Shown: piece after piece, positions 2,960-48,519 of the stretch
How positions within the stretch are numbered: the stretch's first letter is position 1
Layout: each line of letters opens with the position of its first letter
NCBI GenBank assembly: GCA_038324555.1
Contig: JBBQIC010000001.1
Span: 1-49,778, forward strand
DNA length: 49,778 nt
Direction: 5' to 3'
DNA from: Chloroflexia bacterium
GTDB lineage: Bacteria; Chloroflexota; Chloroflexia; QHBQ01; JADMIH01
Notes under the pieces: generated by a model
Told to the model about the DNA's origin: nothing
The model's database searches: none
Seen by the model: only the letters and a program-made list of their open reading frames with translations
Made by a program: the position numbers and the translations under genes

Positions 2960-4258
2960 GTGCTGCCTGAACCACGCCTCGCCCGGCAGATCATCGAAAC
3001 ACTCGGCCAATCGGGCACACCTATGTCAAAGGGCGTCAGCTACTACAACGTGGGTAACGAGTCGCTGCTCAACGCCATTGACACGCACTACCTGGGGTCA
3101 TACCTGGCGGACGGCGGGGCGGCCTTCAAACTGGTGGTTGGAGACTACGGCAGTGGCAAGTCGCACTTCCTGTATTGCGTGCGCGACCGCGCATGGCAAC
3201 GCGATTTCGCCGTGAGCAAGGTGGACCTCAGCCCCAAGGAAAGCCCCTACGACGATCAGCGCCGGGTATACTCGGCGGTGGCGTCCTCGCTTGTGTGGCA
3301 CGAATTGGGTAGCGGGAGCGAAGATGAGCAGGGGCTGTCGCGCTTCCTCGAAGGCACGCTGAGGCGGTTGGTCGCGCCGCACGGCTTCGATTTCCAGGAC
3401 GAGGGCGCGCAAGACGTTCCCGAAGTGCGCGCTTTCCTGCATACTCTGGAAACCACGCCCGTTGACAGCCTGAGTTTCCATAGGGCCATACAGGGCTACT
3501 TCAACGCGCTACTTCGGGGGCAGGAGCGGCGCGTCGAAACGCTAGAACGTTGGTTGCACGGCGAAGAAGTGACGCCGGAAGATATGCGCGACCTGCGCTC
3601 TATTGGTGTGACCGAGAAGATCAACAAGAACAACGCCTTCAAGATGCTGCGCTCGCTGTGCCAGGCCGTGCGCGCAATGGGCTATACAGGATTGGCCTTG
3701 CTGTTCGATGAAGGCGACCGCATGATGAGCATCGGCGGCAAAGCCGAGAAGACGGCCACCGACAACCTGCGCGAAGTGATAGACCGATGCCGGGAGGACT
3801 TACCGGGCGCGCTCTTCATGTACGCGGTCCCGCCCGATTTCCTGCATACGGTAGTGCCCAAGTATCCGGCGCTACAGCAGCGCGTCCAGGCTGCCGACTA
3901 CTTCTCGCGCGTCAACCCTTTCAGCCCACAGATAGACCTCGACCATCTCGATCTGCCCGACGGCCAACTGCTGATTGAGATCGGCAACCGCCTCCTGCCC
4001 ATCTTCGAGACGGCCTACGATGTGAGGCTTGATCACGAGAAGCAGGCCGCGAACATCGCAACTTTGTCCGGAGCCGCGTGCAATTCGTATCTGGCGATCA
4101 GCCATCGCCGGTTGTTCGTGAAGGCTATCGTCACCGAATGGTATCGCCAGAAAGAGACCGGCGAAAGTGTCATTTCGCCAGAGCACGCCGACGCCCTTAT
4201 CAAAGGGCAAAGTGAAGCCCTGAACCGCCAGGCGGACGAAGAGCAGGGGGCATATTAG
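2960..4258 (+). CDS. P-loop ATPase, BrxD/DUF2791-like
   Basis: GTG start after GAAGGAGAAGAGGAG. Walker A GDYGSGKSHF (3140-3169) and Walker B ALLFDEGD. The N-terminal 'IIETLGQSGTP' segment before the P-loop is typical of the DUF2791 architecture. Family assignment is from motif memory, not from a search. Confidence 0.65.
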   Translation: MLPEPRLARQIIETLGQSGTPMSKGVSYYNVGNESLLNAIDTHYLGSYLADGGAAFKLVVGDYGSGKSHFLYCVRDRAWQRDFAVSKVDLSPKESPYDDQRRVYSAVASSLVWHELGSGSEDEQGLSRFLEGTLRRLVAPHGFDFQDEGAQDVPEVRAFLHTLETTPVDSLSFHRAIQGYFNALLRGQERRVETLERWLHGEEVTPEDMRDLRSIGVTEKINKNNAFKMLRSLCQAVRAMGYTGLALLFDEGDRMMSIGGKAEKTATDNLREVIDRCREDLPGALFMYAVPPDFLHTVVPKYPALQQRVQAADYFSRVNPFSPQIDLDHLDLPDGQLLIEIGNRLLPIFETAYDVRLDHEKQAANIATLSGAACNSYLAISHRRLFVKAIVTEWYRQKETGESVISPEHADALIKGQSEALNRQADEEQGAY

Positions 4259-4262
4259 GGGA

Positions 4263-4334
4263 GTTAGAACGTTGGAACGTTGGAACCTGCCAACGTTCTA
4301 ACGTTCTAACGTTCTAGCGTTCTAACGTTCTAAC
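4263..4334. repeat. gttggaac/gttctaac-family hairpin element (8-nt units)
   Basis: gttagaacgttggaacgttggaac-ctg-ccaacgttctaacgttctaacgttctagcgttctaacgttctaac. Fills the gap between the two ATPase genes. Confidence 0.9.
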
Positions 4335-4336
4335 AC

Positions 4337-5761
4337 ATGGAGCAGTCACCCAAAGTCAATCACTCGCAGTTTGGCCCCGGAACGCTTCTTAAGACGTTCA
4401 TGGGCGGTTTTGAGTGGGAAGTGCAGTTTGATTCGGGGCGGCGATTCCGCCTGCCCGCAAAAGAGTTCGACGGAGTACAAGGGGTGGCGGGACCAGGGGT
4501 TGGGGACTGGGGATCAGAAGTTAGGGACCGGTCCCCAATTTTGCAGCGCGCGGCGACGTTGGACGTTGACCAGTTTCGGGCGCAGCAAACGCTGGAGAGC
4601 CTTCGCGTTGGCATCGTGCCTGTGCAGGACGCCGAAACGCTCACTATCGGTCTGGAAGCCGAGCGGGTGACGCTGGACAGGGCGTTGGACCGTAGTAGAG
4701 AACGGGGCGGCGACGTGCTGGCGATCATCGGGGATTATGGCTTCGGCAAGAGCCACTTTATCGAACTGACGGCGCGGCGCGGGTTGCGCGAGAACTTCAT
4801 CGTGGCAGGCGCAAGCCTCGACCTGGTGGAAACGCCGCCCGGCAAGGCGCACAAGATTTACGAGGCGCTGGTGACGTCGCTGCGTTATCCCGACACCGAG
4901 CAGCGCGGACTGGCTCCCCTGCTGAATAAGGCGCTGGAAAACCCCTCGGTGATCGCCCGCTTCGTAGAGTTGTGCCCCCGCGAACCGAGGAGTTGCCCAC
5001 TCGCGTCGGCGTTGCTGGCGCTCCAGGATTGTCCCAGCCAATTAGCGTTCGACCAGATCGTGCAGTGGTTGAGCGGGCAGGCCAAACCGCAGGCTGAGAT
5101 GAAAAGCTGCCTTAAGAAGCCGCCTCCCCTCTATGTCACACGCGAAACAGCGCGGCAGTATACCTACCTGCTTACAGGCATTAGCACGCTGGCGACCATG
5201 CTGGGATATAGCGGGCTAGTCGTGCTGATTGACGAGTCCGAGCACTATTCGCTGCTGCGCACTTCACAGCGCGAGCGGGCCGACTCGTTCTTCAAGGCGA
5301 TGATAGTTAGCGCGTTGGGGCTGAACAACGCTCGCATAGACGCCCGCGAAATCCCCGACAACTCTCGCGCCGAGTACCCTGTGAGCTACGCCTCCGAAGC
5401 CCACATGCTATTCCTCTTTGCTCTCACGGAGAGCGCGGACCGGATGCCGGTGGGCACATGGCTCGCGCCCTCGCATATAGTCCGATTGGACGACCGTTTT
5501 ATCGAGAAGGACATCCGCGAGTTCTTCGAGACGCTGCTGCGCTACCATGCTCTGGCCTACAGCTACTCACCCACGCCCGAAGGCCATGGGGAGACCGTCC
5601 CCAGCGCAACGGAGATGCTCTCTCGCGCTCTTGGTCAGCACCGTGTGAACCTGCGCCAGCTGATCCGCACCGCAGTGACGGTGTGCGACCTGCTCTACCT
5701 CTACCCCGACTATCTGCCCGCCAAGCTGCTGGAAGAATTGAAGCGTGGGTTGAGGGTTTAA
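4337..5761 (+). CDS. P-loop ATPase, BrxD/DUF2791-like paralog with N-terminal Tudor/SH3-like domain
   Basis: Walker A GDYGFGKSHF (4731-4760), Walker B VVLIDESE, and 'ESLRVGIVPVQDAETLTIGLE' ahead of the P-loop. The N-terminus HSQFGPGTLLKTF..WEVQFDSGRRFRLPAKEF resembles the PcrA/UvrD C-terminal Tudor-like (DUF3553-type) motif. Confidence 0.65.
   Translation: MEQSPKVNHSQFGPGTLLKTFMGGFEWEVQFDSGRRFRLPAKEFDGVQGVAGPGVGDWGSEVRDRSPILQRAATLDVDQFRAQQTLESLRVGIVPVQDAETLTIGLEAERVTLDRALDRSRERGGDVLAIIGDYGFGKSHFIELTARRGLRENFIVAGASLDLVETPPGKAHKIYEALVTSLRYPDTEQRGLAPLLNKALENPSVIARFVELCPREPRSCPLASALLALQDCPSQLAFDQIVQWLSGQAKPQAEMKSCLKKPPPLYVTRETARQYTYLLTGISTLATMLGYSGLVVLIDESEHYSLLRTSQRERADSFFKAMIVSALGLNNARIDAREIPDNSRAEYPVSYASEAHMLFLFALTESADRMPVGTWLAPSHIVRLDDRFIEKDIREFFETLLRYHALAYSYSPTPEGHGETVPSATEMLSRALGQHRVNLRQLIRTAVTVCDLLYLYPDYLPAKLLEELKRGLRV
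4489..4538. repeat. cagggat/ggggatc-family element inserted in frame in the second ATPase
   Basis: gggaccaggggttggggactggggatcag...gggaccggtcccc. ttggggac (4500-4507) pairs with gtccccaa (4531-4538). Encodes GPGVGDWGSEVRDRSP. Confidence 0.65.
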
Positions 5762-5790
5762 CTGCCCGAGTTATATGCCCACACACCTAC

Positions 5791-5819
5791 TTGATGCTGC
5801 TATCGCATCCTGCTACAAT
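5791..5819 (+). promoter_or_regulatory. Sigma-70-like promoter for vapBC (TTGATG-17 nt-TACAAT)
   Basis: ttgatg (5791-5796), 17-nt spacer, tacaat (5814-5819). Lies 65 nt upstream of the antitoxin ATG. Confidence 0.45.
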
Positions 5820-5883
5820 GAACTTGAGGCATGGTGCGCAATCGTGCGCTTAAGTCTAAACTATAAATCAAAGAGAAATAACA

Positions 5884-6174
5884 ATGGAGATTACCCTAAC
5901 ACCGGACATTGAACAAGCTCTGCGGGAGCAAGCTGAACGGCGCGGGACTACGCCGGAGCAGCTTGCGATAGAGAGTTTGCGCCAGCAGTTCGTGCATCCA
6001 ACGCAGAGCGAGCGACCGGCAGAGGGCCAAAGAACGCTCGCAGATTTCCTCGGCGACTCCATCGGAGTTCTACACAGCCACGAGCACGTTCCAGGTGGTG
6101 CACGGATGTCTGAGGTTACAAGTGAGACCTTTACGAAAGGGCTAATCGAGAAGAGGGCGCGAGGTCAGCTGTGA
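5884..6174 (+). CDS. Type II antitoxin (VapB-like)
   Basis: 96-aa ORF overlapping the downstream PIN gene by 4 nt (GTGA). N-terminus MEITLTPDIEQALREQAERRGTTPEQLAIESLRQ is typical of small DNA-binding antitoxins. Confidence 0.7.
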   Translation: MEITLTPDIEQALREQAERRGTTPEQLAIESLRQQFVHPTQSERPAEGQRTLADFLGDSIGVLHSHEHVPGGARMSEVTSETFTKGLIEKRARGQL

Positions 6175-6581
6175 TTCTTATGGATACAGGCCCCATAATC
6201 GCCCTTTTAGATACGGACGATTCTAATCATACAGCTTGCATGGCTACCGCACAACGCTTGCCCCCTGAGCCACTGCTCACAACGTGGCCGTGCTTTACCG
6301 AAGCCATGTATTTGCTAGGGGCAGTAGGTGGCTACCGGTACCAGGCAAAACTTTGGCAGCTGTGGGAAGCAAAGCGACTCGTTTTATATGACTTCACGTC
6401 CACAGAGCTAGAGCGTATGCCTCTATTGATGGAAAAATACCGCGATACACCGATGGACCTTGCCGATGCATCGTTGATTGTATTGGCAGAGAGTCTTTCT
6501 CTCAAACAGATTTTCACGGTGGACAGAGATTTCTACGTCTACCGTTTGGCGGATGGAACGGCGCTGGAAGTTATCAAGTGA
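6171..6581 (+). CDS. vapC: PIN-domain toxin, VapC family
   Basis: ILMDTGPIIALLD (first acidic residue), DLADASLIVLAE, FTVDRDF. Spacing is PIN-like. Coupled to the upstream antitoxin. Confidence 0.8.
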   Translation: MILMDTGPIIALLDTDDSNHTACMATAQRLPPEPLLTTWPCFTEAMYLLGAVGGYRYQAKLWQLWEAKRLVLYDFTSTELERMPLLMEKYRDTPMDLADASLIVLAESLSLKQIFTVDRDFYVYRLADGTALEVIK

Positions 6582-6632
6582 TAAGGGTTATCGCAGTGCT
6601 GTAATCGTCAGACAGAGATAAAGGCAGAATCC

Positions 6633-7232
6633 ATGGCGCTACAACTTGAACCAAGAACCGGCATCAGGCGGCACATTGTCTCTCTCGATGAATACGACCG
6701 GATGATAGAGGCAGGGGTGTTTGAGCCGGAAGCGCGCGTTGAGCTTATTAGAGGTGAGATTGTAGATATGCCCCCTCCCGGACCTGAACACGAAACCTCA
6801 GTTACACGGTTACACCTACTCTTCTTTGAACAGTGCCGCAGGCGTGCCATTGTGTGGCCGCAGGGCAATTCCATTGGCTTACCCCAAAGCACATCACGCC
6901 CGCAACCCGATGTTACAATACTGAAATGGCGTGACGACCTCTACTCAGGCAAGCGTCCCATGCCGGAAGATGTAATCCTAATTGCTGAAGTTGCAGATAG
7001 CAGCCTCAAACTCGACCGTGGGAGTAAGTTAGGACTCTACGCTGAGGCAGGTGTTCAGGAATACTGGGTGATCAACCTCGTGGACGGCATTGTTGAAATA
7101 TATACAAACCCCAGCGCAGGCAAGTATCAGGTCGTCAGGGCAGCCCACGAGGGTGAGACGTTGCGACTGCCAGGCGGTCTGGATGGGGGCGTTGCTGTCA
7201 GCGACATATTGAGCCAGGAGTTGACACCCTGA
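6633..7232 (+). CDS. Uma2-family (DUF820) putative PD-(D/E)xK endonuclease
   Basis: ELIRGEIVDMPPPGPEHE, PDVTIL, LIAEVADSS...KLGLYAEAGVQEYWVINL is the characteristic Uma2 pattern. Confidence 0.8.
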   Translation: MALQLEPRTGIRRHIVSLDEYDRMIEAGVFEPEARVELIRGEIVDMPPPGPEHETSVTRLHLLFFEQCRRRAIVWPQGNSIGLPQSTSRPQPDVTILKWRDDLYSGKRPMPEDVILIAEVADSSLKLDRGSKLGLYAEAGVQEYWVINLVDGIVEIYTNPSAGKYQVVRAAHEGETLRLPGGLDGGVAVSDILSQELTP

Positions 7233-7242
7233 GACCCGTCTG

Positions 7243-9654
7243 ATGGATGAGGGCATGGAACCTGATCGCCTCGAAAATGGTCACGCGCTAAAATCAGCCC
7301 TGCCGCGCACATGGGGCGCGTTCTTTGGCCGCCACGGCAATTTCACTCCCGCCCAGCTTGCCGCTATTCCGCCGTTGCTGGCGGGCGAAAACGTGCTTCT
7401 GTGCGCTCCTACCGCCTCCGGCAAAACAGAGGCCGCGCTTGCTCCGCTAATTGAGCGCCACCTGTCGCTGTCAGGCAGGACCGAGTATACACCAGCCGAT
7501 GGACGATGGACGATGGACGATGGACGCACCCAATCTCCAGCGTCGTCAACCGTCCATCGTCCATCGTCCATCGTCCATCGTCCATCATCCCTAACGATCC
7601 TCTACCTTCTGCCCACGCGGGCGCTGATCAGCGACTTGTGCGCCCGCCTTGCCGCGCCACTGGAAAGGCTGCGCGTCTCTTTTGCGGTCAAAACGCACGA
7701 CTTCACCACCTTCGACCCCAAGCGGCCCGCCGATCTGCTGCTGACCACGCCGGAGTCGCTCGATGCGCTGCTTGCGAGTCAGGCGAAGATACTGGCGGGC
7801 GTGCGGGCGGTGGTGATAGACGAATTGCACGTTTTCGACGGCACGCCTCGTGGCGATCAACTTCGGGTTGTGCTGAACAGGCTGCGACAAGTGCGCGCCC
7901 ACGCAGCCCGCGTAGGGGACGCGACTGACGATAGCCTGCAACTCGCCGCGCTTTCAGCGACCCTCACGCAACCCGAAGCCGCCGCAACGCGCTTCCTGGC
8001 TTCGGCCAAAGTGGTGCGAGCGTCGGGCCATCGCACGATACAGGCCGAGCAGATTGCACTCGCTGTGCCGGACGACGGACGATGGACGATGGACGATAGT
8101 GAAGAATCGTCCATTGTCCATCGTCCATCGTCCATAACGACCGATGCTCTGCTCAACTACCTGAGCGATTTCCGCAAGCGCGGTTGGCGCAAGGCGCTGG
8201 CCTTCTGCAACACCCGCAGCGAAGTAGAGACCTATGCCGCAGCGGTGCGGGCAGCAGGATCGCCTTTCGGCGACGCCGTGTACGCGCACTACTCTAACCT
8301 GGCGTGGGAGAGACGGCGGGAAATCGAGCAGCAGTTCGCACAGGCGCAAGCAGCCATCTGCTTCGCCAGTAGCACGCTCGAACTGGGGATAGACATCGGC
8401 AACATTGACGTGGCTCTACTCATCGGCGCGCCGGGAAGTATCGAGGCATTCGTACAGAGGACCGGAAGGGCCGGTCGCCGTCAGCCGGTAGCGAGGGTGG
8501 CCTGCTTTTATCGCACACCCCTTGAACGTATCACCTTCGACGCGCTAATCAGGGCTGAAAGTCCAGGGTCCAAGGTTCAAGGTCCAAAGTCCAACATCAA
8601 TGGGATTGGACCTTCAATCCTGGACCCTGGACCCTGGACCGCCGGAGTTGAGCAGGCGACATCAGAGAGGGACGCAGCTACATCGTCGCACTTTCACCCA
8701 TCGGTCGCCATACAGCAGATATTCAGCTTGCTCAAGCAGAGTCCGACAGGCGCGGTACGGCTCAACCCTTTAGCCGGGTTGTTTGCCGGGATGCTCTCTG
8801 CCGACGACCTTCGGGCGATAATGGGCACGTTGCAGGCTTTGGGGTATTTACAGAGCGGGCGGGCCGGGGAATGGCGAGCGGGGGAGCAGCTCAACCAGCT
8901 TGCCGACCTCCAATCGGCTGAATACACCCCTCTCAGCCTGCACAGCAATATTCCAACGTCAGGCTCGAAACCGATCAAAATCCGGGACCGGTACAGCCAG
9001 CGCGTTGTGGCAAGTGTCGACCGGCAGTGGTTTGACCGCGACCAACTTACGTTGGAAGGGCGGCCTATGAGTATAGAGTGGTACGACGGCGAGTCGCTGT
9101 GGGTCTCTGCCCAGCGCGGTCACGACACCGAGGACGTGCCGGCACGCCTGCGCTATCTCTCGACGCGACAGATATTGAGCTACGACCTTGCACGGCGCTT
9201 CCCGCCTGTTCTTGGCCTGCCGCCCGCGACAGCGCCGTTGGTCCAGCAAGATAACGGCTTGGTATGGTTTCACTGGTTAGGGGACGTTTATGGGCGGGCG
9301 GCCCTAGACCTGGTAAAGTACACGATGCCCGCAATGGAAACACCGGAGCCTGGGCTGTGCTTACTGCTGCAAGACGTGGGTGACGCACGAGGCGGGAGCG
9401 GGCTTCGCGCCGCCATCCTGTCCTGGACGCACGAGCAGGTCGTACACTACCTCCACGACAAGTATCGCCGCTATGAACCGATGCTGGCGCTTGGAGCCTA
9501 TCACCACCTGCTGCCTGTGGAACTGCGCCGCCGGGCCGTAGTGGAGCAGTTTGACGTGCCGCGTTTCTTGCAAGCCGTAGAAAATCTCAATATTGGACAT
9601 GCTGGTGAAGCCCCCACCGAGGAGCTAGGGGATTTTATAAATGGAATAGGGTGA
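7243..9654 (+). CDS. Lhr-like DEAD/DEAH-box SF2 helicase with long C-terminal extension
   Basis: Motif I CAPTASGKTEAA (about 7405-7428), motif II DELH (7819-7830), ALSATL, and motif VI VQRTGRAGRR. Carries three in-frame hairpin-element insertions. The stop codon lies inside an agggtgagggaat element. Confidence 0.85.
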   Translation: MDEGMEPDRLENGHALKSALPRTWGAFFGRHGNFTPAQLAAIPPLLAGENVLLCAPTASGKTEAALAPLIERHLSLSGRTEYTPADGRWTMDDGRTQSPASSTVHRPSSIVHRPSSLTILYLLPTRALISDLCARLAAPLERLRVSFAVKTHDFTTFDPKRPADLLLTTPESLDALLASQAKILAGVRAVVIDELHVFDGTPRGDQLRVVLNRLRQVRAHAARVGDATDDSLQLAALSATLTQPEAAATRFLASAKVVRASGHRTIQAEQIALAVPDDGRWTMDDSEESSIVHRPSSITTDALLNYLSDFRKRGWRKALAFCNTRSEVETYAAAVRAAGSPFGDAVYAHYSNLAWERRREIEQQFAQAQAAICFASSTLELGIDIGNIDVALLIGAPGSIEAFVQRTGRAGRRQPVARVACFYRTPLERITFDALIRAESPGSKVQGPKSNINGIGPSILDPGPWTAGVEQATSERDAATSSHFHPSVAIQQIFSLLKQSPTGAVRLNPLAGLFAGMLSADDLRAIMGTLQALGYLQSGRAGEWRAGEQLNQLADLQSAEYTPLSLHSNIPTSGSKPIKIRDRYSQRVVASVDRQWFDRDQLTLEGRPMSIEWYDGESLWVSAQRGHDTEDVPARLRYLSTRQILSYDLARRFPPVLGLPPATAPLVQQDNGLVWFHWLGDVYGRAALDLVKYTMPAMETPEPGLCLLLQDVGDARGGSGLRAAILSWTHEQVVHYLHDKYRRYEPMLALGAYHHLLPVELRRRAVVEQFDVPRFLQAVENLNIGHAGEAPTEELGDFINGIG
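7498..7586. repeat. gatggac-family hairpin, in frame in the helicase
   Basis: (gatggac) x4, 24-nt loop, (cgtccat) x5. Encodes [10 protein letters not shown]...[15 protein letters not shown]. Confidence 0.9.
8071..8135. repeat. gatggac-family hairpin, in frame in the helicase
   Basis: gacgacggacgatggacgatggacgat-agtgaagaat-cgtccattgtccatcgtccatcgtccat. Confidence 0.9.
8561..8640. repeat. gtccaaa/ggtccag-family hairpin, in frame in the helicase
   Basis: gtccagggtccaaggttcaaggtccaaagtccaac...tggaccttcaatcctggaccctggaccctggacc. Confidence 0.85.
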
Positions 9655-9707
9655 GGGAATAGGGTGAGAAATAAAGACTACTCCCTCACCCTACTCCCTC
9701 ACCCTAT
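9644..9707. repeat. agggtgagggaat-family hairpin between convergent helicase and phoU (likely bidirectional terminator)
   Basis: ggaatagggtgagggaatagggtgag-aaataaagacta-ctccctcaccctactccctcaccctat. Contains the helicase TGA. Confidence 0.9.
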
Positions 9708-9718
9708 TTTATCTCTTC

Positions 9719-10384
9719 TCAATACTTGGAAGAATTGAACTCCTCCATTTTGCCGGTAATGAGGAAGGCTACGCGCTCGCAGATGTTGGTCACACGGTCT
9801 GCTATGCGCTCAAGATTATGGGCCACCCACAAGAGGTGCGTAGCTCGATTGATAGTGCCTGGATCGGCCATCATGAAGGTGAGCAGTTCTCGGTATATCT
9901 GCTCATAGAGCGCGTCTACCTGGTCGTCTTCATTGGCAATCTGGCGGGCTGCTTCTGCGTCGCGCTTCATGAAAGCGTCCATGCTTCGACGCAGCATGGA
10001 TCGGGTTAAATCGTCCATTTGCGGAATGTCAATGAGCGGCTTTAAGGGTGGCTCATCGCCCGTCATTGTGACGATTTTGGCAATGCCTTCGGCGTGATCG
10101 CCCATGCGCTCAAGGTCCGTGATGATATTGAGCACCGCCGCGATGATGCGCAAATCAGACGCAATCGGCTGCTGTGTGGCTATCAGCAGCAAGCACTCTT
10201 CTTCGATGCCGAAGCGTTGCTGGTTGATCTTGAAGTCGTCGTTGATGACCTCTTGCGCCAGCTTCTGGTCACGGCTCTTGAGGGCCTCAACCGAGCGTTG
10301 AATGGCCTTCTCGACCATACTCGCCATGACGAGCATTTCTTCCTGCACCCGTTGCAGTTCTTTGTTGAACAGTTCCCTGACCAT
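9719..10384 (-). CDS. phoU: Phosphate signalling complex protein PhoU
   Basis: Two PhoU repeats (DLERMGDHAEGIAK / NLERIADRVTNICE). AAGGAG lies upstream of the ATG. Located at the end of the pst operon. Confidence 0.9.
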   Translation of the reverse strand: MVRELFNKELQRVQEEMLVMASMVEKAIQRSVEALKSRDQKLAQEVINDDFKINQQRFGIEEECLLLIATQQPIASDLRIIAAVLNIITDLERMGDHAEGIAKIVTMTGDEPPLKPLIDIPQMDDLTRSMLRRSMDAFMKRDAEAARQIANEDDQVDALYEQIYRELLTFMMADPGTINRATHLLWVAHNLERIADRVTNICERVAFLITGKMEEFNSSKY

Positions 10385-10399: not shown

Positions 10400-10468
10400 T
10401 AGGGTGAGGGAGTAGTCCTATTCCTATTCCCTCACCCTATTCCCTCACCCCACACCCCTCACCCTATC
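10400..10468. repeat. agggtgagggaat-family hairpin between pstB and phoU
   Basis: tagggtgagggagtag...attccctcaccctattccctcacccc...cctcaccctat. Supplies the last codons and the stop of pstB copy 2. Confidence 0.85.
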
Positions 10469-11280
10469 CGCCCCGTGATATACGCTTCCGTCCGAGGGTC
10501 TCTCGGCGACGTAAATATCTGGCGAGTGGCAGCTACCTCGATCAGTTCGCCCGCCCGCTCCTCGTTCATCATCAACACGCCCACCTGGTCCGAGACGCGG
10601 GCCGCTTGCTGCATATTATGGGTCACTATGACGATTGTGATACTCTCCTTCAACTCGTACATCAGATCCTCTATCTTCAAGGTGGATATGGGGTCGAGGG
10701 CCGAAGCAGGCTCGTCCATCAGCAGCACTTCGGGTTCGACCGCAAGGGCGCGGGCGATGCACAGACGCTGCTGCTGCCCGCCGGAGAGCGATGTGGAGGG
10801 CTGGTCAAGCTTATCTTTTACCTCGTCCCACAGGGCCGCTCGCCGCAACGCGGTCTCCACGTATTGTTGCAAATCTGCGGCATTGCGGATACCGACTATC
10901 GTAAGTCCGATTGCTACGTTGTCGAAGATGCTTTTTGTGACCAGCGGGTTCGGCCTCTGGAAGACCATACCGACCGCCCGCCGCACTTCCCCCACATCCG
11001 CACCCGAATAGATGTCGGTGTCACCGAGCATGACGCGACCCGTCACTCGTGCTCCGGGCGCGGTCTCGTGAATACGGTTCAAGCACCTGAGCACCGTGGA
11101 TTTGCCCGAACCCGACGGCCCTATCAACCCGGTTATCCTGTTGCACGGTACGTCCATGCTCACGCCATTCACGGCCAGGAACTTGCCGTACCAGGCGTTC
11201 AGTTCCTGTATGCTCAGGGCTATCTGCTGCCCCGAAGTGGCACGTTGAGTGCTGTCTATCGCGTGTTCCATTGTGCTCAT
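10459..11280 (-). CDS. pstB: Phosphate ABC transporter ATP-binding protein PstB (copy 2)
   Basis: [49 protein letters not shown] start at ATG 11280 (MSTMEH...) because the 80 upstream codons of the long ORF are only a translation of the gatggac repeat array. Confidence 0.9.
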
Positions 11281-11289
11281 ATTGCTCCT

Positions 11290-11443
11290 GACGATGGACG
11301 ATGGACGATGGACGATGGACGATGGACGATGGACGATGGACGATGGACGATGGACGATGGACGATGGACGATGGACGATGGACGATGGACGATGGACGAT
11401 GGACGATGATGAACGGTCGTCCATCGTCCATCGTCCATCGTCA
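11290..11443. repeat. Expanded gatggac array (~17 units) with a short complementary arm
   Basis: A heptamer tandem runs 11291-11408. The loop is atgaacggt. The reverse arm cgtccatcgtccatcgtccatcgtc is only ~3.5 units. Confidence 0.95.
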
Positions 11444-12316
11444 TCATCCAAACCGTCCCGTAATGAAGTCCTCGGTCTCCTTCTGGGCGGGCGTGAGGAA
11501 CATCTGCATGGTAGGGCCAACCTCTTTAATGCGGCCTGCCAGGAAAAAGGCGCAGTATTCGGAGACGCGGGCCGCTTGCTGAAGGTTGTGGGTAACTATC
11601 ACTGTAGTATAGTTCTTCTTCAACTCGACTATCAGGTCCTCTATTTTGCCTGTGGAGATGGGGTCGAGGGCAGAAGCAGGCTCGTCCATCAGCAACACTT
11701 CGGGGCGCAGAGCTATAGCGCGGGCGATGCACAGGCGCTGCTGCTGCCCGCCGGAGAGCGCGAACGCCGACTTCTTGAGCTTATCCTTCACGTCGTCCCA
11801 AAGCGCGGCTTCCCGCAGGCTCTTTTCCACGCGGTCGGATATTTCGCTCCTGGCATACTTGTGGACGTGAAGAGCATAGGCTACGTTGTCGTAAATAGAC
11901 TTGGGAAATGGGTTGGCCCTCTGGAAGACCATACCTACCCTAAGGCGTAACCTGACCACATCAACGTCGCTTCCAAGCAATTCCTGGGCGTCCAGCCTTA
12001 TGCTCCCCTCGGCGCGGGCGGATGGCACAATGTCGTTCATGCGGTTGATGCAGCGCAGAAAGGTGGTCTTGCCGGAACCCGAAGGCCCGATGAGCGCCGT
12101 AACTTGCTTCTCGCGTATGTCCAGGTTGATGCCGTAAAGCGCCTGCTTCGCGCCGTAGTAAAAATCGAGGTTGCTGGCTGTCACTTTCGGTTTGGCATCA
12201 GGGTTAGCCTCAAATACAGGCCGCAACCCGGTCAGCAGAGCCGGTTTTGGTTGGTCCATTAAGCTGCTTCCTGGCCCCCTTCCGTTGGGGGCTACTGTCT
12301 TTAGGTAGTTGCCCAT
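11444..12316 (-). CDS. pstB: Phosphate ABC transporter ATP-binding protein PstB (copy 1)
   Basis: [47 protein letters not shown]. The true start may be ATG 12259 (MDQPKP, AGGAAG 7 nt upstream), giving 271 aa. Confidence 0.85.
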
Positions 12317-14396: not shown

Positions 14397-14415
14397 TCGC
14401 CCTTGTCCTGGTTGA

Positions 14416-14512
14416 CGTAGGGGCAGACCCCCGTGCCTGCCCTGGTGGGTTTACCACCAATATTCGGCGATATACATATGGGAGAGGGCAGGCACGGGGG
14501 CCTGCCCCTACG
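14416..14512. repeat. 28-bp-arm GC inverted repeat upstream of pstC
   Basis: cgtaggggcagacccccgtgcctgccct (14416-14443) pairs with agggcaggcacgggggcctgcccctacg (14485-14512) with few mismatches. Confidence 0.8.
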
Positions 14513-14526
14513 CCAAGTCAATTATC

Positions 14527-18368: not shown

Positions 18369-20273
18369 TCAGCCGCTATTCGCAGTGCCTCTACCTTCGG
18401 AGGGCAGAGTGAAGAAGAAAGTCGTGCCCCGATTCAGTTGGCTTTCGACCCAGATATGCCCGCCGTGAGCCTGCACTATATGCTTGGCGATGGCAAGGCC
18501 CAGACCCGTCCCGCTCTCCCGATTGGATGCGCGCAGGGTCGAAGCTTCTCCCTCCACATCGCCACGAGCGCCAGTGCGTCCCTTGTCTACTTTGTAGAAT
18601 CGCTCGAATATGCGAGGCAGATCGTCGGGCGGGATGCCGATCCCCGTATCCTCTACCGCGATAACAATGCCTCCCTTTTGAGACGCCGCTTGAAGGGTTA
18701 TCTGACCACCCGGAGGGGTAAACTTGATGGCGTTATGGACGAGGTTGACCAGCGCCTGCTCGACCCGTTCGGCGTCAGCATAAGCGTATAGCGCGGGGTC
18801 GGTAGTCCGCGCGCTGAGGTTGAGATTGGCGCGCTCGGCCTGGGCCTTCAACCTCCGTACCGTGCTATTGAGCAGTTCTACGACCTGAACGGGCCTCTTG
18901 TTCAATTGGACCTTGCCCGACTCGATCCTTGATAACTCGAGCAGTTCCCGCACCAGTTGAGTGAGGCCGTCTAGCTCTACGTCTATCGTCCGCAAGAAAC
19001 CGCGCGCGACCTTCGGGTCGTCCTTCACGGCGGTTTCAAGGGTCTCGACGAGCAGCTTGATTGAAGCTAACGGGGTGCGCAGTTCATGCCCTATATTAGT
19101 TACGAAGTCGCGGCGCACGCGCTCTAACCGTCGCAGTTCGGTCACGTCCTGGAGCACCACGAGGCCCTTGGGCCGCCCCCCGTCAGCTCCTGGCACCAGA
19201 GTAACGACGGCAGCAATCGTATGCCCGGCTATCTCGGTTTCCAACTTCTGAGGTTCGCGCCGAGCCAGCGCCGCGCTCAACGCCCGGTGCAGATCGTGGT
19301 TGTGGCTCACTTCGATAAGCGAGCGTTCGGCGGCTTGCTCAGGAGCAGAACCTAGTAGCAACGCCGCAGCCGGATTGATGCCCTGGATGCGCCCCTGGGC
19401 ATCGGTGAGCACTACGCCGTCCTGCATATTGGCAAGGACCGCAGCCATCTGATTGCGCTCGGTGGTCAGTTGTAGGATAGTGGCGCTCAACTGGTCGGCC
19501 ATAGAGTTGAATTCCCGACTTAGTTCCCCTATTTCTCCACTGGTAACAAGAGTTGAACGCATAGACAGGTTGCCCCGCCCCAGGCTTTGGGCCGCGTGGC
19601 GCAACGTTGATAGCGGCCCAACTATAGAGCGGGCAAGGAGAGTGCTAAGTAGCACGGCAGGAATGCTGACAAGCAGCACCGCTATGATAAGGTCGCCCCA
19701 CAGGGCGTCGCGGGCGCTCTCGACCGAAGTCATAGGATAAGCGACGCGGGCCACGCCAATGACAGACGATGGACGGCGGACGATGGACGATGGTTGAGGC
19801 GTGCTACCGTCCATCGTCGGCTGTCCATCGTCCTGTAAATCAGTGACCGCCATCGCAACATATAACAAGCGCCGGTGTACCGTCGCACTGAGACGTATAT
19901 CGCTGCCCGGTTGGTCCTTTCTTGCCAGGGCTTCGCGCACTTCGGGACGGTCTTTATGGTTCTCCATGAGGCTGGGGTCTTGCTCCGAGTCACCTACCAC
20001 CGTGCCGTCCGGCCTGATAAATGTGACCCTGGTCCCGAAAACGCCTGATAGCTGGTGGGCGAGAGAATTGGTAGCCGTTATGGGGGCGTCACCGGCAAAA
20101 AGCGGTGCGGCGCTGTACGCAGAGGCACGTACCTCGTCGGCCAGGCGCGCCCGCAAGGCTTCTTCCTCACGGCGCTCGAACTCGCCCCCCAGCAACAGAG
20201 CCAGCACGCCCCCCGTGATCAGCGCCAGCAGCGCATAACTCAGGGCGATGCGGGTCCAGGTGGTTGAGAGCAT
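18369..20273 (-). CDS. phoR: Sensor histidine kinase, PhoR-like (TM-sensor-HAMP-PAS-HisKA-HATPase)
   Basis: H-box IGHELRTPLASI, N-box LVHNAIKFT, G-boxes EDTGIGI / GTGLGLAIAKHIV. Adjacent to an OmpR-type regulator and the pst genes. Has an in-frame gatggac-element insertion in the sensor domain. Confidence 0.8.
   Translation of the reverse strand: MLSTTWTRIALSYALLALITGGVLALLLGGEFERREEEALRARLADEVRASAYSAAPLFAGDAPITATNSLAHQLSGVFGTRVTFIRPDGTVVGDSEQDPSLMENHKDRPEVREALARKDQPGSDIRLSATVHRRLLYVAMAVTDLQDDGQPTMDGSTPQPSSIVRRPSSVIGVARVAYPMTSVESARDALWGDLIIAVLLVSIPAVLLSTLLARSIVGPLSTLRHAAQSLGRGNLSMRSTLVTSGEIGELSREFNSMADQLSATILQLTTERNQMAAVLANMQDGVVLTDAQGRIQGINPAAALLLGSAPEQAAERSLIEVSHNHDLHRALSAALARREPQKLETEIAGHTIAAVVTLVPGADGGRPKGLVVLQDVTELRRLERVRRDFVTNIGHELRTPLASIKLLVETLETAVKDDPKVARGFLRTIDVELDGLTQLVRELLELSRIESGKVQLNKRPVQVVELLNSTVRRLKAQAERANLNLSARTTDPALYAYADAERVEQALVNLVHNAIKFTPPGGQITLQAASQKGGIVIAVEDTGIGIPPDDLPRIFERFYKVDKGRTGARGDVEGEASTLRASNRESGTGLGLAIAKHIVQAHGGHIWVESQLNRGTTFFFTLPSEGRGTANSG
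19765..19833. repeat. gatggac-family hairpin, in frame in phoR
   Basis: gacgatggacggcggacgatggacgatgg-ttgaggcgtgctac-cgtccatcgtcggctgtccatcgtcc. Encodes DGQPTMDGSTPQPSSIVRRPSS. Confidence 0.85.
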
Positions 20274-21195: not shown

Positions 21196-21327
21196 GCAGG
21201 GTGGATGCAAAGTCGGTGGAGCGTGCCCCTTGACGATAGACGATAGACGATAGACGATTGAGCAGGCATCGTCTATCGTCTATCGTCTATCGTCTATCGT
21301 CGGATAAGCGACTTTGCACCAGCCCTA
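21196..21327. mobile_element. MITE-like element: ~18-bp TIRs around a gatagac hairpin core, flanked by an 11-bp direct duplication
   Basis: Direct repeat tctgtgagaga at 21185-21195 and 21328-21338. Left end gcagggtggatgcaaagtcg. The reverse complement of the right end is tagggctggtgcaaagtcg. The core is (gatagac) x3.5-ttgagcagg-(catcgtct) x4.5. Confidence 0.7.
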
Positions 21328-22279: not shown

Positions 22280-22345
22280 GGTTGGAAAGTTGGCAGGTTG
22301 AAATGTCCTAATGTTCCAACCTGCCAACTTTCCAACTTTCCAACC
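22280..22345. repeat. ggttggaa-family hairpin between rpmF and fabH
   Basis: ggttggaaagttggcaggttgaa, an 11-nt loop, then ttccaacctgccaactttccaactttccaacc. Confidence 0.85.
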
Positions 22346-23348
22346 CGGAGAAGCATTGGCGACTAAGTATGCAGCGATAACCGGCTGGGGAAGCGCGGTG
22401 CCCAAGAAGGTGCTCACCAACGCCGACCTGGAAAAGTTGGTTGATACATCAGACGAGTGGATTACCAGTCGCACGGGCATCAGCGAGCGCCACGTCGTAA
22501 GCCCAAACGAAAGCACATCCACCCTGGCGATTGCCGCAGCGCGTCAGGCCCTCGAACGCGCCCAGGTATCCCCCTGGCAAGTTGACCTCGTAATCTGCTG
22601 CACCGCGACGCCCGATTTTCTCTTCCCAGCCACCGCCTGCCTGGTTCAGCACGAGATTGGAGCCGAGAACGCGGGCGCGTTTGATTTGGAAGCCGCGTGC
22701 GCCGGGTTCATTTACGGCCTCAGCGTGGGCAGCCAGTTTATCAAGTCGGGCGCTTACAAGACCGTGCTCGTGGTAGCAGCCGAAGCCCTTTCGCGCTTCA
22801 TTGATTGGAAGGACCGGTCCACCTGCGTGCTATTTGGCGATGGGGCGGGCGCTGTGGTGCTCCAACCGTCCGACACGCCGAGCGGCCTGCTGTCGTTTGT
22901 GCTGGGATCACACGGCGTGGGAGCCGATCTTATCAAGCTGCCTGCTGGCGGCGCGGCCAAACCCGCTACCGATAACACGGTTGCGATGCGCGACCACTAC
23001 ATAAAGATGAATGGGCAGGAAGTGTATCGTTTCGCCGTGCGCATCCTGGGCGATTCGGCTATCGAAGCCCTCGATAAGGCCAACCTGGGATACAACGACA
23101 TTTCGCTGTTCATACCCCACCAGGCCAACACGCGCATCATCGACTCCGTCGCCAGGCGTCTGGAACTCGACACCGACAAGGTCTACATGAACATCGCCAA
23201 GTACGGCAACACGTCTGCTGCCTCTATACCCATCGCGCTTTGCGAAGCGATAGACGCCGGACGTGTCAAGGCTGGCGATAACCTGTTGTTCGTGGCATTC
23301 GGCGCGGGCCTCACGAGCGCGGCTGCCGTCGTCAAATGGGGATGCTGA
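22311..23348 (+). CDS. fabH: Beta-ketoacyl-ACP synthase III
   Basis: TSDEWITSRTGISERH, active-site Cys context EAACAGF, HQAN, and GNTSAASIP...FGAGLT. The first 15 codons of the ATG-22311 form are hairpin-element sequence. In-frame TTG 22356 (GGAG 6 nt upstream) is an alternative start. Confidence 0.9.
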   Translation: MFQPANFPTFQPGEALATKYAAITGWGSAVPKKVLTNADLEKLVDTSDEWITSRTGISERHVVSPNESTSTLAIAAARQALERAQVSPWQVDLVICCTATPDFLFPATACLVQHEIGAENAGAFDLEAACAGFIYGLSVGSQFIKSGAYKTVLVVAAEALSRFIDWKDRSTCVLFGDGAGAVVLQPSDTPSGLLSFVLGSHGVGADLIKLPAGGAAKPATDNTVAMRDHYIKMNGQEVYRFAVRILGDSAIEALDKANLGYNDISLFIPHQANTRIIDSVARRLELDTDKVYMNIAKYGNTSAASIPIALCEAIDAGRVKAGDNLLFVAFGAGLTSAAAVVKWGC

Positions 23349-23352
23349 TTTT

Positions 23353-23421
23353 GACGATGGACGATGGACGATAGACGTTAGTAAGCCATCGTCCATCGTC
23401 CATCGTCCATCGTCTATCGTC
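23353..23421. repeat. gatggac-family hairpin between fabH and fabD
   Basis: gacgatggacgatggacgatagacg-ttagtaagc-catcgtccatcgtccatcgtccatcgtctatcgtc. Confidence 0.9.
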
Positions 23422-30884: not shown

Positions 30885-30962
30885 CCCGGTGGGTGAATAG
30901 GATGAACCCGTAGGGGCACACGGCCGTGTGCCCCTACGGGTTCACCCTATTCACCCACCGGG
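30885..30962. repeat. 78-bp near-perfect palindrome with gtaggggcacacggccgtgtgcccctac core
   Basis: cccggtgggtgaatagg(a)tgaacccgtaggggcacacgg pairs with ccgtgtgcccctacgggttcaccctattcacccaccggg. Lies between convergent genes. The right arm encodes the anti-sigma C-terminus and stop. Confidence 0.9.
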
Positions 30963-33389: not shown

Positions 33390-33499
33390 AACCAACTAGA
33401 CCTTGTCATTCTGAGCGAAGCGAAGAATCTGGTCGTCGGGCACTGTGCTGAGGTTTAGAGATTCTTCGCTTCGCTCAGAATGACAAGGTCTAGTTGGTT
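33390..33499. repeat. 41-bp perfect inverted repeat (…gtcattctgagcgaagcgaagaatct)
   Basis: aaccaactagaccttgtcattctgagcgaagcgaagaatct (33390-33430) pairs with its exact reverse complement (33459-33499). The loop is 28 nt. Confidence 0.9.
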
Positions 33500-36296: not shown

Positions 36297-36537
36297 GTAG
36301 GGGCGCACGGCCGTCATTGACCCCAACTAATACACTGGTTCGACTCCGCCCGGCGCTCTCCGCGAGCGAATTAGTTGAGGCATGGTCATAATTCGTAGGC
36401 ATGATTGCGGTTGTAGGGGCGCACGGCCGTGCGCCCCTACGGTTGGGCCGCAGATGTATGCTGGTACGTAGCGCGTGTCTGACCATTTATGACCATGCCT
36501 CAATTAGTTGGAGTCAATGACGTCCGTGCACCCCTAC
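36297..36537. mobile_element. MITE-like composite element with 35-bp terminal inverted repeats (32/35 match)
   Basis: Left end gtaggggcgcacggccgtcattgaccccaactaat (36297-36331). The reverse complement of the right end (36503-36537) is gtaggggtgcacggacgtcattgactccaactaat. Inside are a 17-bp inverted repeat ttgaggcatggtcataa (36375-36391 / 36487-36503) and a gtaggggcgcacggccgtgcgcccctac palindrome (about 36413-36440). Confidence 0.65.
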
Positions 36538-38096: not shown

Positions 38097-38128
38097 TTAC
38101 TGACACTTACATGAGTTGCTAATATTCA

Positions 38129-38193
38129 GACGATGGACGATGGACGATGGACGATGGACGATTGAACGAGCATCGTCTATCGTCCATCGTCTC
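38129..38193. repeat. gatggac-family hairpin upstream of comEC
   Basis: (gacgatg) x~5, loop tgaacgagc, then atcgtctatcgtccatcgtctc. Confidence 0.9.
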
Positions 38194-40047: not shown

Positions 40048-41190
40048 ATGCAAATAGGCAACGACTCGGCAAAGCCGGAAGAGCGAGATAAGGGCGCGAT
40101 TAATCACGCTCCCACCGGCTGGCGCGTCCGGCCTTACAGGGAGGAGGATATGCACGGCCTGCTCGCACTTTACAGCGATGTCTTCGGACGCGAGCGGACG
40201 GAAGAGGAATTTCGATGGAAGCTGCTGGGACCAGGCACAGCTATAGATACTGTGTGGGTAGCTGAGAGCGCAGACGGAGAGATAATCGGCCAGCACGCGG
40301 GCATACCCATGCGTCTCAAGCTAGGGGATAGTATTGTTACAGCGATGCACGCAGTTGAAGCCATGTCCCACCGCGATTTCCGGCGGGAAGGGATGCTCAC
40401 CAGGCTGGGTGGGGGGCTTTACGGGCGGTGGCAAGAGCAGGGCGTTCCACTCATCATAGGCTTGCCACACGAGGGTTGGGGGTCGCGCGCCTATGCCCTC
40501 GGCTATCGCCAGGCGTTTCCCATGAGGTGGCTGTCCCGACCCTTGCGGCCTCTCTCTATCGTGCTGTCCAAAGTCCAAAGTCGAATGTCCAAAGTCCAAA
40601 GTTCAGGGTCCAAGGTTCAGGGTCCAAGGTTCAGGGTCCAAAGTCCAAAGTCCGAAGCTGAGGGTTGGACTTTGGACTTGCAGGACATACAGGTGCTCCG
40701 CCACGAGTTCGCCGGACCCGACTTCGACGAATTGTGGAGCGACATAGGAGGCGCTTACAGCAACGCAGTAGTCAGAGACGCCCGATGGGTGCAATGGCGC
40801 TACCTGGACGCGCCCACTGCGCCTTACTCGCTCTTGCTCGCCAGCCGGAAAGGCAGGCCTACGGGTTACATAGCCTATCGCACCGTAACGTCTGGTGCAA
40901 GAAGGATCGGGCGCATCGCGGACATCTTCGCCCGGCCAAATGACACTCAAACAACCCGTGCCCTGGTGAGAGAGGCTATATCCGACCTTCGACGCAGTGG
41001 CGCAGACTCTGTGGTTGTCCTGGTTGCGGTTGGCTCACTTCTATACTCAACTATGAGGGCGCAAGGCTTCTTGTTCAATCGCGGCGAGTATAAAGTGGCC
41101 TTCATACGGCTCTCGGAGGCTATTGACGCCCAGACTATAAATGATCCCGGCAAGTGGCTCCTCACAGGGGGAGACTTTGATGTCGTTTAG
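40048..41190 (+). CDS. GNAT-family N-acetyltransferase (two-domain)
   Basis: VRPYREEDMHGLLALYSDVF, VAESADGEIIGQHAGIPM, FRREGMLTRLG (acetyl-CoA loop). Has a 115-nt in-frame repeat array. Confidence 0.75.
   Translation: MQIGNDSAKPEERDKGAINHAPTGWRVRPYREEDMHGLLALYSDVFGRERTEEEFRWKLLGPGTAIDTVWVAESADGEIIGQHAGIPMRLKLGDSIVTAMHAVEAMSHRDFRREGMLTRLGGGLYGRWQEQGVPLIIGLPHEGWGSRAYALGYRQAFPMRWLSRPLRPLSIVLSKVQSRMSKVQSSGSKVQGPRFRVQSPKSEAEGWTLDLQDIQVLRHEFAGPDFDELWSDIGGAYSNAVVRDARWVQWRYLDAPTAPYSLLLASRKGRPTGYIAYRTVTSGARRIGRIADIFARPNDTQTTRALVREAISDLRRSGADSVVVLVAVGSLLYSTMRAQGFLFNRGEYKVAFIRLSEAIDAQTINDPGKWLLTGGDFDVV
40566..40680. repeat. gtccaaa/ggtccaaggttcag array with short reverse arm, in frame in the GNAT
   Basis: About 13 heptamer units run 40566-40657. 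The reverse arm is ttggactttggacttg. Encodes SKVQSRMSKVQSSGSKVQGPRFRVQSPKSEAEGWTLDL. Confidence 0.9.
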
Positions 41191-42951: not shown

Positions 42952-43062
42952 GGGAGTAGGGGCACACGGCCGTGCGCCCCTACGGGTGTCCCGTGACGTT
43001 GGGTAGGGGCGCACGGCCGTGTGCCCCTACTCCCTCACCCTATTCCCTCACCCTACTCCCTA
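42931..43062. repeat. Composite palindrome-of-palindromes (agggtgagggaat arms, each carrying a gtaggggc.cacggccgtg.gcccctac palindrome)
   Basis: gagggtgagggaatagggtgagggagtaggggcacacggccgtgcgcccctac, about 20 nt, then gtaggggcgcacggccgtgtgcccctactccctcaccctattccctcaccctactcccta. Confidence 0.9.
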
Positions 43063-48457: not shown

Positions 48458-48507
48458 GACGTGAAACGTGAAACGTGATTATCGTGTTCACGTTTCACGT
48501 TTCACGC
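48458..48507. repeat. gtgaaac-family hairpin between radical SAM 2 and 3
   Basis: gacgtgaaacgtgaaacgtga-ttatcgtgt-tcacgtttcacgtttcacgc. The loop is homologous to the reverse complement of the 2917-2928 loop. Confidence 0.9.
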
Positions 48508-48519
48508 ATCAGAATTACT

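Follow-up and report, generated by a model that had tools for sequence, protein, structure and literature searches.

Hairpin repeats with heptameric arms residing in frame in an Lhr-like helicase gene of a Chloroflexia bacterium

Several families of dispersed palindromic repeats have been found inside bacterial open reading frames (ORFs). The Rickettsia palindromic elements (RPEs) are present in 19 genes of Rickettsia, and for one of the products activity has been shown (Ogata et al. 2000, via PMC2229807). Repetitive extragenic palindromes (REPs) are located mostly downstream of ORFs, to which their ends often supply the stop codon (Di Nocera et al. 2013, PMC3733652); in several species REPs of the GTAG/CGTC type also lie inside ORFs, sometimes twice in one gene, where they encode 20-30 aa, and many of the genes concerned function in DNA synthesis or repair or encode helicases (PMC3733652). 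In the case of the Correia element, the 107-bp form, whose frame is open, lies within genes, and the stop-containing form of 155 bp remains intergenic (PMC2229807). Heptameric repeats (GGGNATC of Xanthomonas and Nostoc, PMC4692102; TAACTGA of Beggiatoaceae, PMC4679880) are numerous, lie mostly between genes and are under-represented inside them; some form inverted pairs, the same heptamer may be present in distant phyla with no known vehicle, and those units that carry stops in every frame occur solely at the ends of ORFs (PMC4692102, PMC4679880). In this study we describe hairpins whose arms are tandem arrays of a heptamer, and which lie three times, in frame, within the gene of an Lhr-like helicase (7243-9654) of a Chloroflexia bacterium. 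The window, i.e. the whole stretch of DNA analyzed, comprises 49,778 nt of contig JBBQIC010000001.1 (assembly GCA_038324555.1), and its coordinates count from its first letter.

The hairpins and their arms were located with inverted-repeat and tandem-repeat tools. Insert 1 (7498-7590, + strand; 93 nt, 31 codons) is composed of approximately four GACGATG units, a 24-nt loop and approximately six CATCGTC units; its arms (7497-7526 and 7551-7580) are complementary at 30 of 30 positions, and the right heptamer tract continues to 7590. The same two units, about four of each, flank an 8-nt loop in insert 2 (8070-8135, + strand; 66 nt, 22 codons), whose arms of 28 nt each (8070-8097 and 8106-8133) are 93% complementary. 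Insert 3 (8560/8561-8640, + strand; approx. 81 nt, 27 codons) is a degenerate hairpin of the GTCCARG type, encoding SPGSKVQGPKSNINGIGPSILDPGPWT, with arms of 27-34 nt (8561-8594 and 8606-8639) that are 79-89% complementary. The predicted RNA folding energies of inserts 1, 2 and 3 are -60.6, -52.4 and -49.1 kcal/mol, respectively (z-scores of -10.5, -9.7 and -5.6), and none of 200 dinucleotide shuffles folded to an energy as low. A preliminary description, made from the DNA sequence, had placed three palindromic elements at these sites; we confirmed their presence, moved the end of the first one from 7586 to 7590 and adjusted the other coordinates slightly. The three peptides that it quoted are exact products of the translation of ORF 7243-9654.

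The helicase gene (7243-9654, + strand) encodes a superfamily 2 (SF2) protein of 803 aa, and its orthologs have approximately 685-750 aa. When the window protein was aligned with 25 such orthologs, each of the hairpins corresponded to a stretch peculiar to the window protein. Insert 1 is placed after the residues IERHL, in the loop that follows the motif I helix, a position at which 8-15 residues are found in the orthologs. Insert 2 is placed after IALAVP, in the linker between the RecA1 and RecA2 domains, and the net gain relative to the orthologs (22 aa) equals the 66-nt element. Insert 3 is placed after LIRAE, in a linker following RecA2 that is hypervariable across the helicase family. The motifs are arranged as originally proposed, with GKT (residues 60-62) before insert 1, DELH (193-196) between inserts 1 and 2, and GRAGRR (408-413) between inserts 2 and 3. 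All of the alignment-invariant columns are retained along the whole length of the protein, motifs I, II, III and VI among them as well as many positions of the C-terminal part, and therefore the gene is intact, with the inserts in frame; the earlier view that it is not a pseudogene thus holds.

Other members of the helicase family also differ in length at all three of these sites. Hairpins are absent from the orthologous helicase genes of three contigs that were fetched. Insertions that some other orthologs (the P0006, P0014 and P0020 groups) carry at other sites were considered as possible decayed elements and rejected, as they are not hairpins.

In an AlphaFold model of the helicase, residues 80-112, 279-296 and 440-480 have a predicted local distance difference test (pLDDT) score below 50 and lack secondary structure, and the flanking core scores approximately 80-95. 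The inserts are thus modelled as low-confidence coil at a loop and two linkers, and may lie at the surface, as had been suggested; low pLDDT is also expected for segments without homologs.

Pfam assigned ORF 7243-9654, the sole ORF with homology in that stretch, a DEAD domain (residues 35-243) and a Helicase_C domain (303-413), and detected no domain within the inserts. An Lhr-like SF2 helicase is expected to have a core of RecA1 and RecA2 carrying motifs I, II, III and VI, and in addition a winged-helix and a C-terminal domain as in Lhr-core. The protein agrees with this description, as the motifs are invariant and the folds closest to the model are those of Mycobacterium smegmatis Lhr (5V9X; template modelling score approx. 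0.56) and MrfA. Its top matches in PADLOC are BrxHI (7e-61) and SngC (4e-57). No NCBIfam equivalog cut-off is reached and Pfam finds no DEAD_assoc domain; the helicase is therefore Lhr-like, and nearer to BrxHI/SngC. Thousands of relatives are present in the protein database, mostly of approximately 685-700 aa, and those with names come from Chloroflexota metagenome-assembled genomes (MAGs); the closest is 65% identical by BLASTP and 74% over aligned columns.

Because 7 and 3 are coprime, all frames of a heptamer array read the same seven codons. GACGATG is translated as DDGRWTM and its complement as HRPSSIV, GTCCAAG as VQGPRSK and its complement as LGPWTLD, and all four are stop-free. Full hairpins of stop-containing units (CGTGAAA, GACGATA, 8-mers and 13-mers) were restricted to intergenic DNA, apart from cases in which the single frame used happens to be open. 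Within the window, stop-free units make up six of the nine intragenic hairpins and three of the 17 intergenic ones (Fisher p=0.028). Approximately 25 hairpins, in the window and in loci fetched from other genomes, lie within genes confirmed by Pfam or by alignment, and in every case the frame stays open.

These data bear on the possibility that the inserts are absent from the protein, being either cut from the transcript or bypassed by the ribosome. Translational bypassing of hairpin inserts occurs in some mitochondrial genes; the very stable stems look like structures involved in bypassing, and sequence alone cannot prove translation. However, removal or bypassing would free the elements from the constraints of frame and stop codons, and yet the approximately 25 confirmed intragenic hairpins keep the frame open and stop-free units are enriched. 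The elements, of 64-94 nt, also lack ribozyme or intein features and have no Rfam match, and we regard this explanation as highly improbable. An identity as inteins or self-splicing introns was ruled out, since the inserts amount to only 22-31 codons of repeat-encoded peptide with no splicing domain and no Rfam ribozyme; Rfam detected no family anywhere in the window.

The helicase inserts belong to a much larger set. The window contains approximately 31 strong hairpins, in about 26 of which the arms are tandem repeats (of 7-, 8- or 13-nt units, with period 7 in the large majority). Seventeen of these tandem-arm hairpins are intergenic and nine intragenic; as 87% of the window is coding, they are about 12-fold depleted in genes. 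Seven copies belong to the GACGATG family. Besides the helicase gene, at least three further genes of the window hold in-frame hairpins: (i) a histidine kinase gene (18369-20273, - strand) with a degenerate GACGATG-family hairpin (19765-19832, - strand) that encodes LQDDGQPTMDGSTPQPSSIVRRPSS, (ii) a gene for an ArnT/PMT-like membrane glycosyltransferase (38266-40026, - strand) with four hairpins of four different units (38727-38796, 39220-39298, 39408-39459 and 39612-39662, - strand), and (iii) a GNAT acetyltransferase gene (40048-41190, + strand) with 13 copies of GTCCAAA and a short inverted partner (40566-40679, + strand). When the glycosyltransferase was aligned with nine orthologs, three of its four hairpins coincided with protein-specific insertions and the fourth was located in a variable region.

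In order to follow the GACGATG hairpin in other genomes, one genome per GTDB species was scanned with the pattern GGACGATGGACGATGGACG-N4-34-CGTCCATCGTCCATCGTCC, together with JGI metagenomes and viral contigs. The hairpin was found at 55 loci, 28 from the GTDB-species scan and 27 from JGI metagenomes. The former belong to Chloroflexota (Chloroflexia, Roseiflexaceae, Anaerolineae, Caldilineales and Thermoflexales), Armatimonadota (Chthonomonadia) and Acidobacteriota (Pyrinomonadaceae and another). Not a single copy was present in the viral contigs scanned, so a phage vehicle is unsupported.

About one third to one half of the loci lie within long ORFs that read …DDGRWTMDD…. Pfam domains are recognized on both sides of the hairpin in Mfd, in PriA (again between RecA1 and RecA2) and in a true Lhr, and the same holds for an NRPS adenylation domain, phosphoglucomutase (PGM), PrpD, PSD1, a BTAD/NB-ARC regulator, a histidine kinase, DXR, adenylosuccinate lyase (ADSL), an MGH1-like hydrolase and a TMEM260-like transferase. 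In-frame hairpins occur, in other genomes, in 15 or more gene families beyond the helicase, glycosyltransferase and histidine kinase. The long hairpin-spanning ORFs of loci L013, L015, L018 and L025 were not counted as genes, since they resemble spurious antisense frames rich in arginine. A protein search with a synthetic DDGRWTMDD…SSIVHRPSS query returned only spurious ORFs of 30-83 aa and, owing to its word-index candidate step, missed the helicase itself, and is therefore uninformative about the spread in real proteins. In the DXR gene of one Chloroflexia MAG (L006, 196-1638), the GACGATG hairpin splits the DXP_redisom_C domain, and a second hairpin is located at or just before the N-terminus.

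On this evidence, it is likely that the helicase inserts are members of a genome-wide family of hairpin repeats, which landed in genes and are tolerated in frame at loops and linkers. Each arm of such an element would be made of one short unit repeated in tandem, in nearly all cases of 7 nt, and the two arms would enclose a short loop. Most copies would be intergenic, typically a few bases from a stop codon, and some would have been inserted into genes as DNA. Copies within genes would survive provided that (i) the unit and its reverse complement are stop-free, (ii) the net length change is divisible by three, and (iii) the site is a loop or inter-domain linker tolerating 20-30 extra residues. 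All three of these apply to the helicase, whose inserts would therefore be translated as disordered loops, leaving the core of the enzyme intact. As to their spread, we infer that whole hairpins are copied between sites by some activity, and that the arms may then lengthen or shorten by slippage.

The history of one copy can be followed at the histidine kinase gene, an ortholog of which is located at 8041-9891 on contig JBBSEP010000082.1 of a relative (assembly GCA_038239605.1; here L059). The two proteins are 94% identical (616 aa in L059 vs 634 aa in the window), and L059 lacks the hairpin. Between the flanks GGTCACTGATT and ATTGGCGTGGCC the window has a 77-nt hairpin block, whereas L059 has 23 unrelated nt; the two alleles therefore differ by 54 nt (18 codons), the surrounding sequence being otherwise near-identical. 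There is no target-site duplication at this site and no seed heptamer in the empty allele. More distant orthologs also have the short length, and the simplest reading of these sequences is that the hairpin would be a gain in the lineage of the window, replacing a few codons. L059 has an in-frame hairpin of its own (6841-6896, unit GGACGAA), located in a large guanylate-cyclase/NB-ARC/TPR/GerE regulator gene (4867-7950).

The agreement of the flanks also bears on the reliability of the assembly. As the window comes from a contig of metagenome type and assemblers can be misled by repeats, the inserts might be an assembly artefact or the mark of a decaying pseudogene. Nevertheless, the helicase frame is open over 2.4 kb with every family-invariant residue retained, the same hairpins were recovered from many independent projects and assemblers in contigs of up to 940 kb, and the flanks of the histidine kinase hairpin agree base for base with a second assembly. 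The probability of an artefact or pseudogene is, in our opinion, close to negligible.

A different origin was also considered, in which each hairpin arises locally: a heptamer tract would expand by slippage and acquire its inverted arm by intrastrand template switching (quasi-palindrome correction), with no movement between loci. Slippage is compatible with the variation between relatives, as at the orthologous loci L005 and L031 the loop is identical and the unit number differs, and a 9-mer array downstream of the histidine kinase gene has three copies in the window and four in L059. The window also presents a continuum from single arrays (2870-2917 and 48265-48296) through lopsided hairpins (17 vs 5 units at 11290-11450; 13 vs 2 at 40566-40679) to symmetric ones, and the loops of its GACGATG copies are all different. 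Moreover, heptamers are an over-represented class of simple sequence repeats (SSRs) in many bacteria, which has been attributed to slippage (PMC4692102, PMC4679880).

Local origin does not, however, account for the situation in one Chloroflexia MAG, where four or five loci have in common a homologous loop of approximately 29 nt (GGGGTAAGGATACCGGTTCCACA..CCCC, in either orientation) together with the outer flank GCGGGCCTGCGGCAGACG. Nor does it explain why one unit recurs at dozens of unrelated sites in three phyla, or how, in the histidine kinase gene, a complete 77-nt block came to stand in place of 23 unrelated nt with no seed heptamer. Template switching also does not predict that the 5′ arm should be G-rich and the 3′ arm C-rich. 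Taken together, these observations make an exclusively local origin rather unlikely.

The polarity just mentioned was counted in the tandem-arm hairpins of the window and of loci L001-L031. The 5′ arm contained more G than C in 65 out of 68 cases, and in 26 out of 29 (p=1.5e-5) when the GACGATG family, which had been preselected by the search pattern, was set aside. Hairpins without tandem arms were unbiased (13 vs 15). Since a palindrome reads alike on both strands, the polarity is intrinsic to the element. It might result from selection against exposing C-rich nascent RNA.

Another tentative explanation, which we hold to be unlikely, is that the hairpins are scars of DNA breaks rather than copies of a classical transposon: a polymerase that adds repeats, or a reverse transcriptase, would extend both 3′ ends of a break with the same G-rich heptamer, and the ends would then be joined. 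A single step of end extension and joining could explain the strict polarity, the unequal arms, the arbitrary loops, the lack of target-site duplications and the replacement of the target, and also the occurrence of the same architecture with many different units in three phyla. The loops shared within one MAG indicate that at least some copies spread by copying, and both processes may coexist.

Several points weigh against the interpretation of the inserts as copied and tolerated elements. That they are translated and harmless is something we infer from sequence, and low pLDDT is expected in any case for segments with no homologs in the alignment. The stems, of 28-30 bp in the mRNA, are potential RNase III substrates and obstacles to ribosomes, and their neutrality is assumed. 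The stop-codon filter acting on intragenic hairpins is real but weak on its own, since both strands are free of stops in 50-60% of all heptamers. Neither at 35 or more copies nor at the histidine kinase site is there a target-site duplication. Comparison of the GACGATG copies of the window revealed no shared loops, no shared flanks and no target-site duplications; copy-and-paste is undemonstrated in this genome, because its copies have only the unit in common. Finally, no mobilizing enzyme was found in the window, its proteins including neither a transposase (Y1 or other) nor a reverse transcriptase.

The helicase is the last gene of a defence-like module (2960-9654). Upstream of it are located two genes for BrxD/SngB-like ATPases (PF10923; 2960-4258 and 4337-5761), a PIN gene (6171-6581) and a Uma2 gene (6633-7232), and the orthologs on contigs L001-L003 retain BrxC_BrxD and/or Uma2 neighbors. 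"Lhr-like, probably defence-associated" is thus a fair description of the protein. Such surroundings, found in the window as well as on L001-L003, are one reason to consider phase variation, in which the gain or loss of one 7-nt unit would shift the frame and switch the helicase on or off, as in genes of restriction-modification or BREX systems; others are that 7 is not a multiple of 3 and that repeat numbers vary between relatives. On the other hand, the same hairpins are found in DXR, PriA, Mfd, adenylosuccinate lyase and PGM, genes that are normally essential or have housekeeping roles and in which turning expression on and off would do harm. Each tract is short, at 4-6 units, the third insert is degenerate, and the orthologous helicases are repeat-free; a proneness to frameshifts is more simply regarded as a side effect. 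We therefore find phase variation improbable, and retain the view that the inserts are tolerated members of a dispersed family.

At its 3′ end the helicase gene is abutted by a fourth hairpin (9643-9708), built of the 13-mer unit GGAATAGGGTGAG and placed between the helicase gene and the convergent phoU gene (9719-10384, - strand). It provides the last residues of the helicase and its TGA stop codon (9652-9654). The loop of insert 3 (8590-8610) encodes …NINGIG…, and the C-terminus of the helicase (9640-9654) reads …INGIG*; the corresponding DNA sequences (ATCAATGGGATTGG and ATAAATGGAATAGG, respectively) agree at 11 of 14 positions, so that a remnant of a 13-mer-type element may be present in the loop, or the resemblance may be a coincidence.

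The preliminary description had named RPEs as the precedent for in-frame palindromes. This is apt, and the precedent is wider, as GTAG/CGTC REPs also reside inside genes (PMC3733652). Like RPEs, whose insertions are viewed as tolerated random events (PMC2229807), the hairpins described here are dispersed palindromes that occur both between genes and in frame in conserved genes, where they are presumably translated as additional segments that leave function unimpaired. Dispersal in multiple copies and frame-keeping copies in conserved genes (helicase, glycosyltransferase and histidine kinase) were both observed. In contrast, RPEs are 105-146 bp long, conform to a family consensus and are found in Rickettsia, whereas the hairpins are 64-94 nt long with heptamer arms, share only the unit in this genome, and have hosts among Chloroflexota, Armatimonadota and Acidobacteriota. 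Membership in the Rickettsia RPE family was therefore rejected on the grounds of length, sequence and host.

The resemblance to REPs concerns the genes that carry them, which here include the Lhr-like helicase with its three hairpins, together with Mfd, PriA and Lhr, as well as the stop codon that the fourth hairpin supplies to the helicase. REP stems, however, are of 5-13 bp, with an unpaired GTAG/CGTC tag and, in the GTAG type, RAYT transposases, in contrast to the tandem-unit stems of 25-30 bp found here. An identity as REPs or REPINs was rejected, as the terminal GACG...CGTC is paired, there is no unpaired tag, and no Y1 transposase is present among the window proteins.

[quoted passage not shown] They differ in that their consensus is fixed, at 100-170 bp, and in that they possess terminal inverted repeats as well as target-site duplications. 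A MITE identity was rejected because no target-site duplication is present; one MAG does show a conserved outer inverted flank.

The hairpins share with STRR (short tandemly repeated repetitive) sequences and heptamer SSRs a tandem 7-nt unit that is present at many loci and mainly intergenic. STRR arrays were reportedly described by Vioque in 1997 inside the gene for RNase P RNA. STRRs differ in their cyanobacterial host and published units, the best relatives of the window proteins being from Chloroflexota and the units being others. Heptamer SSRs have been reported mainly as direct arrays, in contrast to the opposed arrays found here, which form a hairpin of fixed polarity and commonly reside in frame in conserved genes. 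Our literature searches, which covered the sequence, the peptides and heptamer hairpins in the three phyla, found no report of heptamer-armed hairpins residing in frame in genes, in agreement with the preliminary description, nor of this sequence in bacteria; one candidate (PMC12985086) turned out to be irrelevant. As in-frame palindromic repeats are already known (RPEs and intragenic REPs), the novelty lies in the heptamer arms, the strict polarity and the cross-phylum spread.

Most of the window hairpins begin 0-10 nt from a stop codon. A GACGATG hairpin at 23353-23421 begins 5 nt past the stop codon of fabH (22311-23348), and the intergenic hairpins at 2870, 9645, 23353, 26724, 27371, 29536 and 48460 begin approximately 0-10 nt past a stop codon with no T-run following, which suggests a role, or tolerance, as 3′-end RNA structures rather than as classical intrinsic terminators. 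A lopsided GACGATG-family hairpin (11290-11450; 17 units in one arm and five in the other) is located between two adjacent ABC-ATPase (PstB-like) genes; because its unit is stop-free, the downstream ORF 10459-11520 stays open for approximately 90 codons upstream of the likely start. Further intergenic copies were found at 21232-21301 (GACGATA) and 38128-38192.

Two other kinds of palindrome are also present. Separate GTAG-type REP-like palindromes (GTAGGGGCACACGG/CCGTGTGCCCCTAC) occur at 1631-1660, 14412-14516, 30885-30962, 36413-36440, 42932-43054 and 48919-48946; one copy lies within a radical-SAM gene (48472-49776), and some are joined to 13-mer hairpins. A third repeat family is represented by a longer perfect palindrome with the core TTGTCATTCTGAGCGAAGCGAAGAATCT (33390-33499), with kin on other Chloroflexota contigs (L003, 5190-5279; L007, 1977-2126; L031, 3486-3627). 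Contig L001, which carries ortholog P0014, contains many short 9-nt tandem arrays and no heptamer hairpins in their place; the favored unit length seems to be lineage-specific.

These results extend in-frame residence from palindromes of the consensus type to hairpins built of repeats, which can be accommodated in conserved enzymes, including the products of normally essential or housekeeping genes, and this behavior is common in at least three phyla that live in soil and are known largely from MAGs. Peptides of the DDGRWTMDD…SSIVHRPSS type are repeat-derived filler that inflates protein lengths and gives rise to spurious small ORFs, and the inserts can disrupt homology-based domain calls, as in the case of the histidine kinase, many matches of which are split in two near the insert. 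At the same time, the inserts mark permissive insertion sites in enzymes. The fixed polarity, the footprint of insertion with replacement and the heptamer shared across phyla offer a concrete handle on how heptamer repeats, whose over-representation in bacteria has long been noticed, arise and spread.

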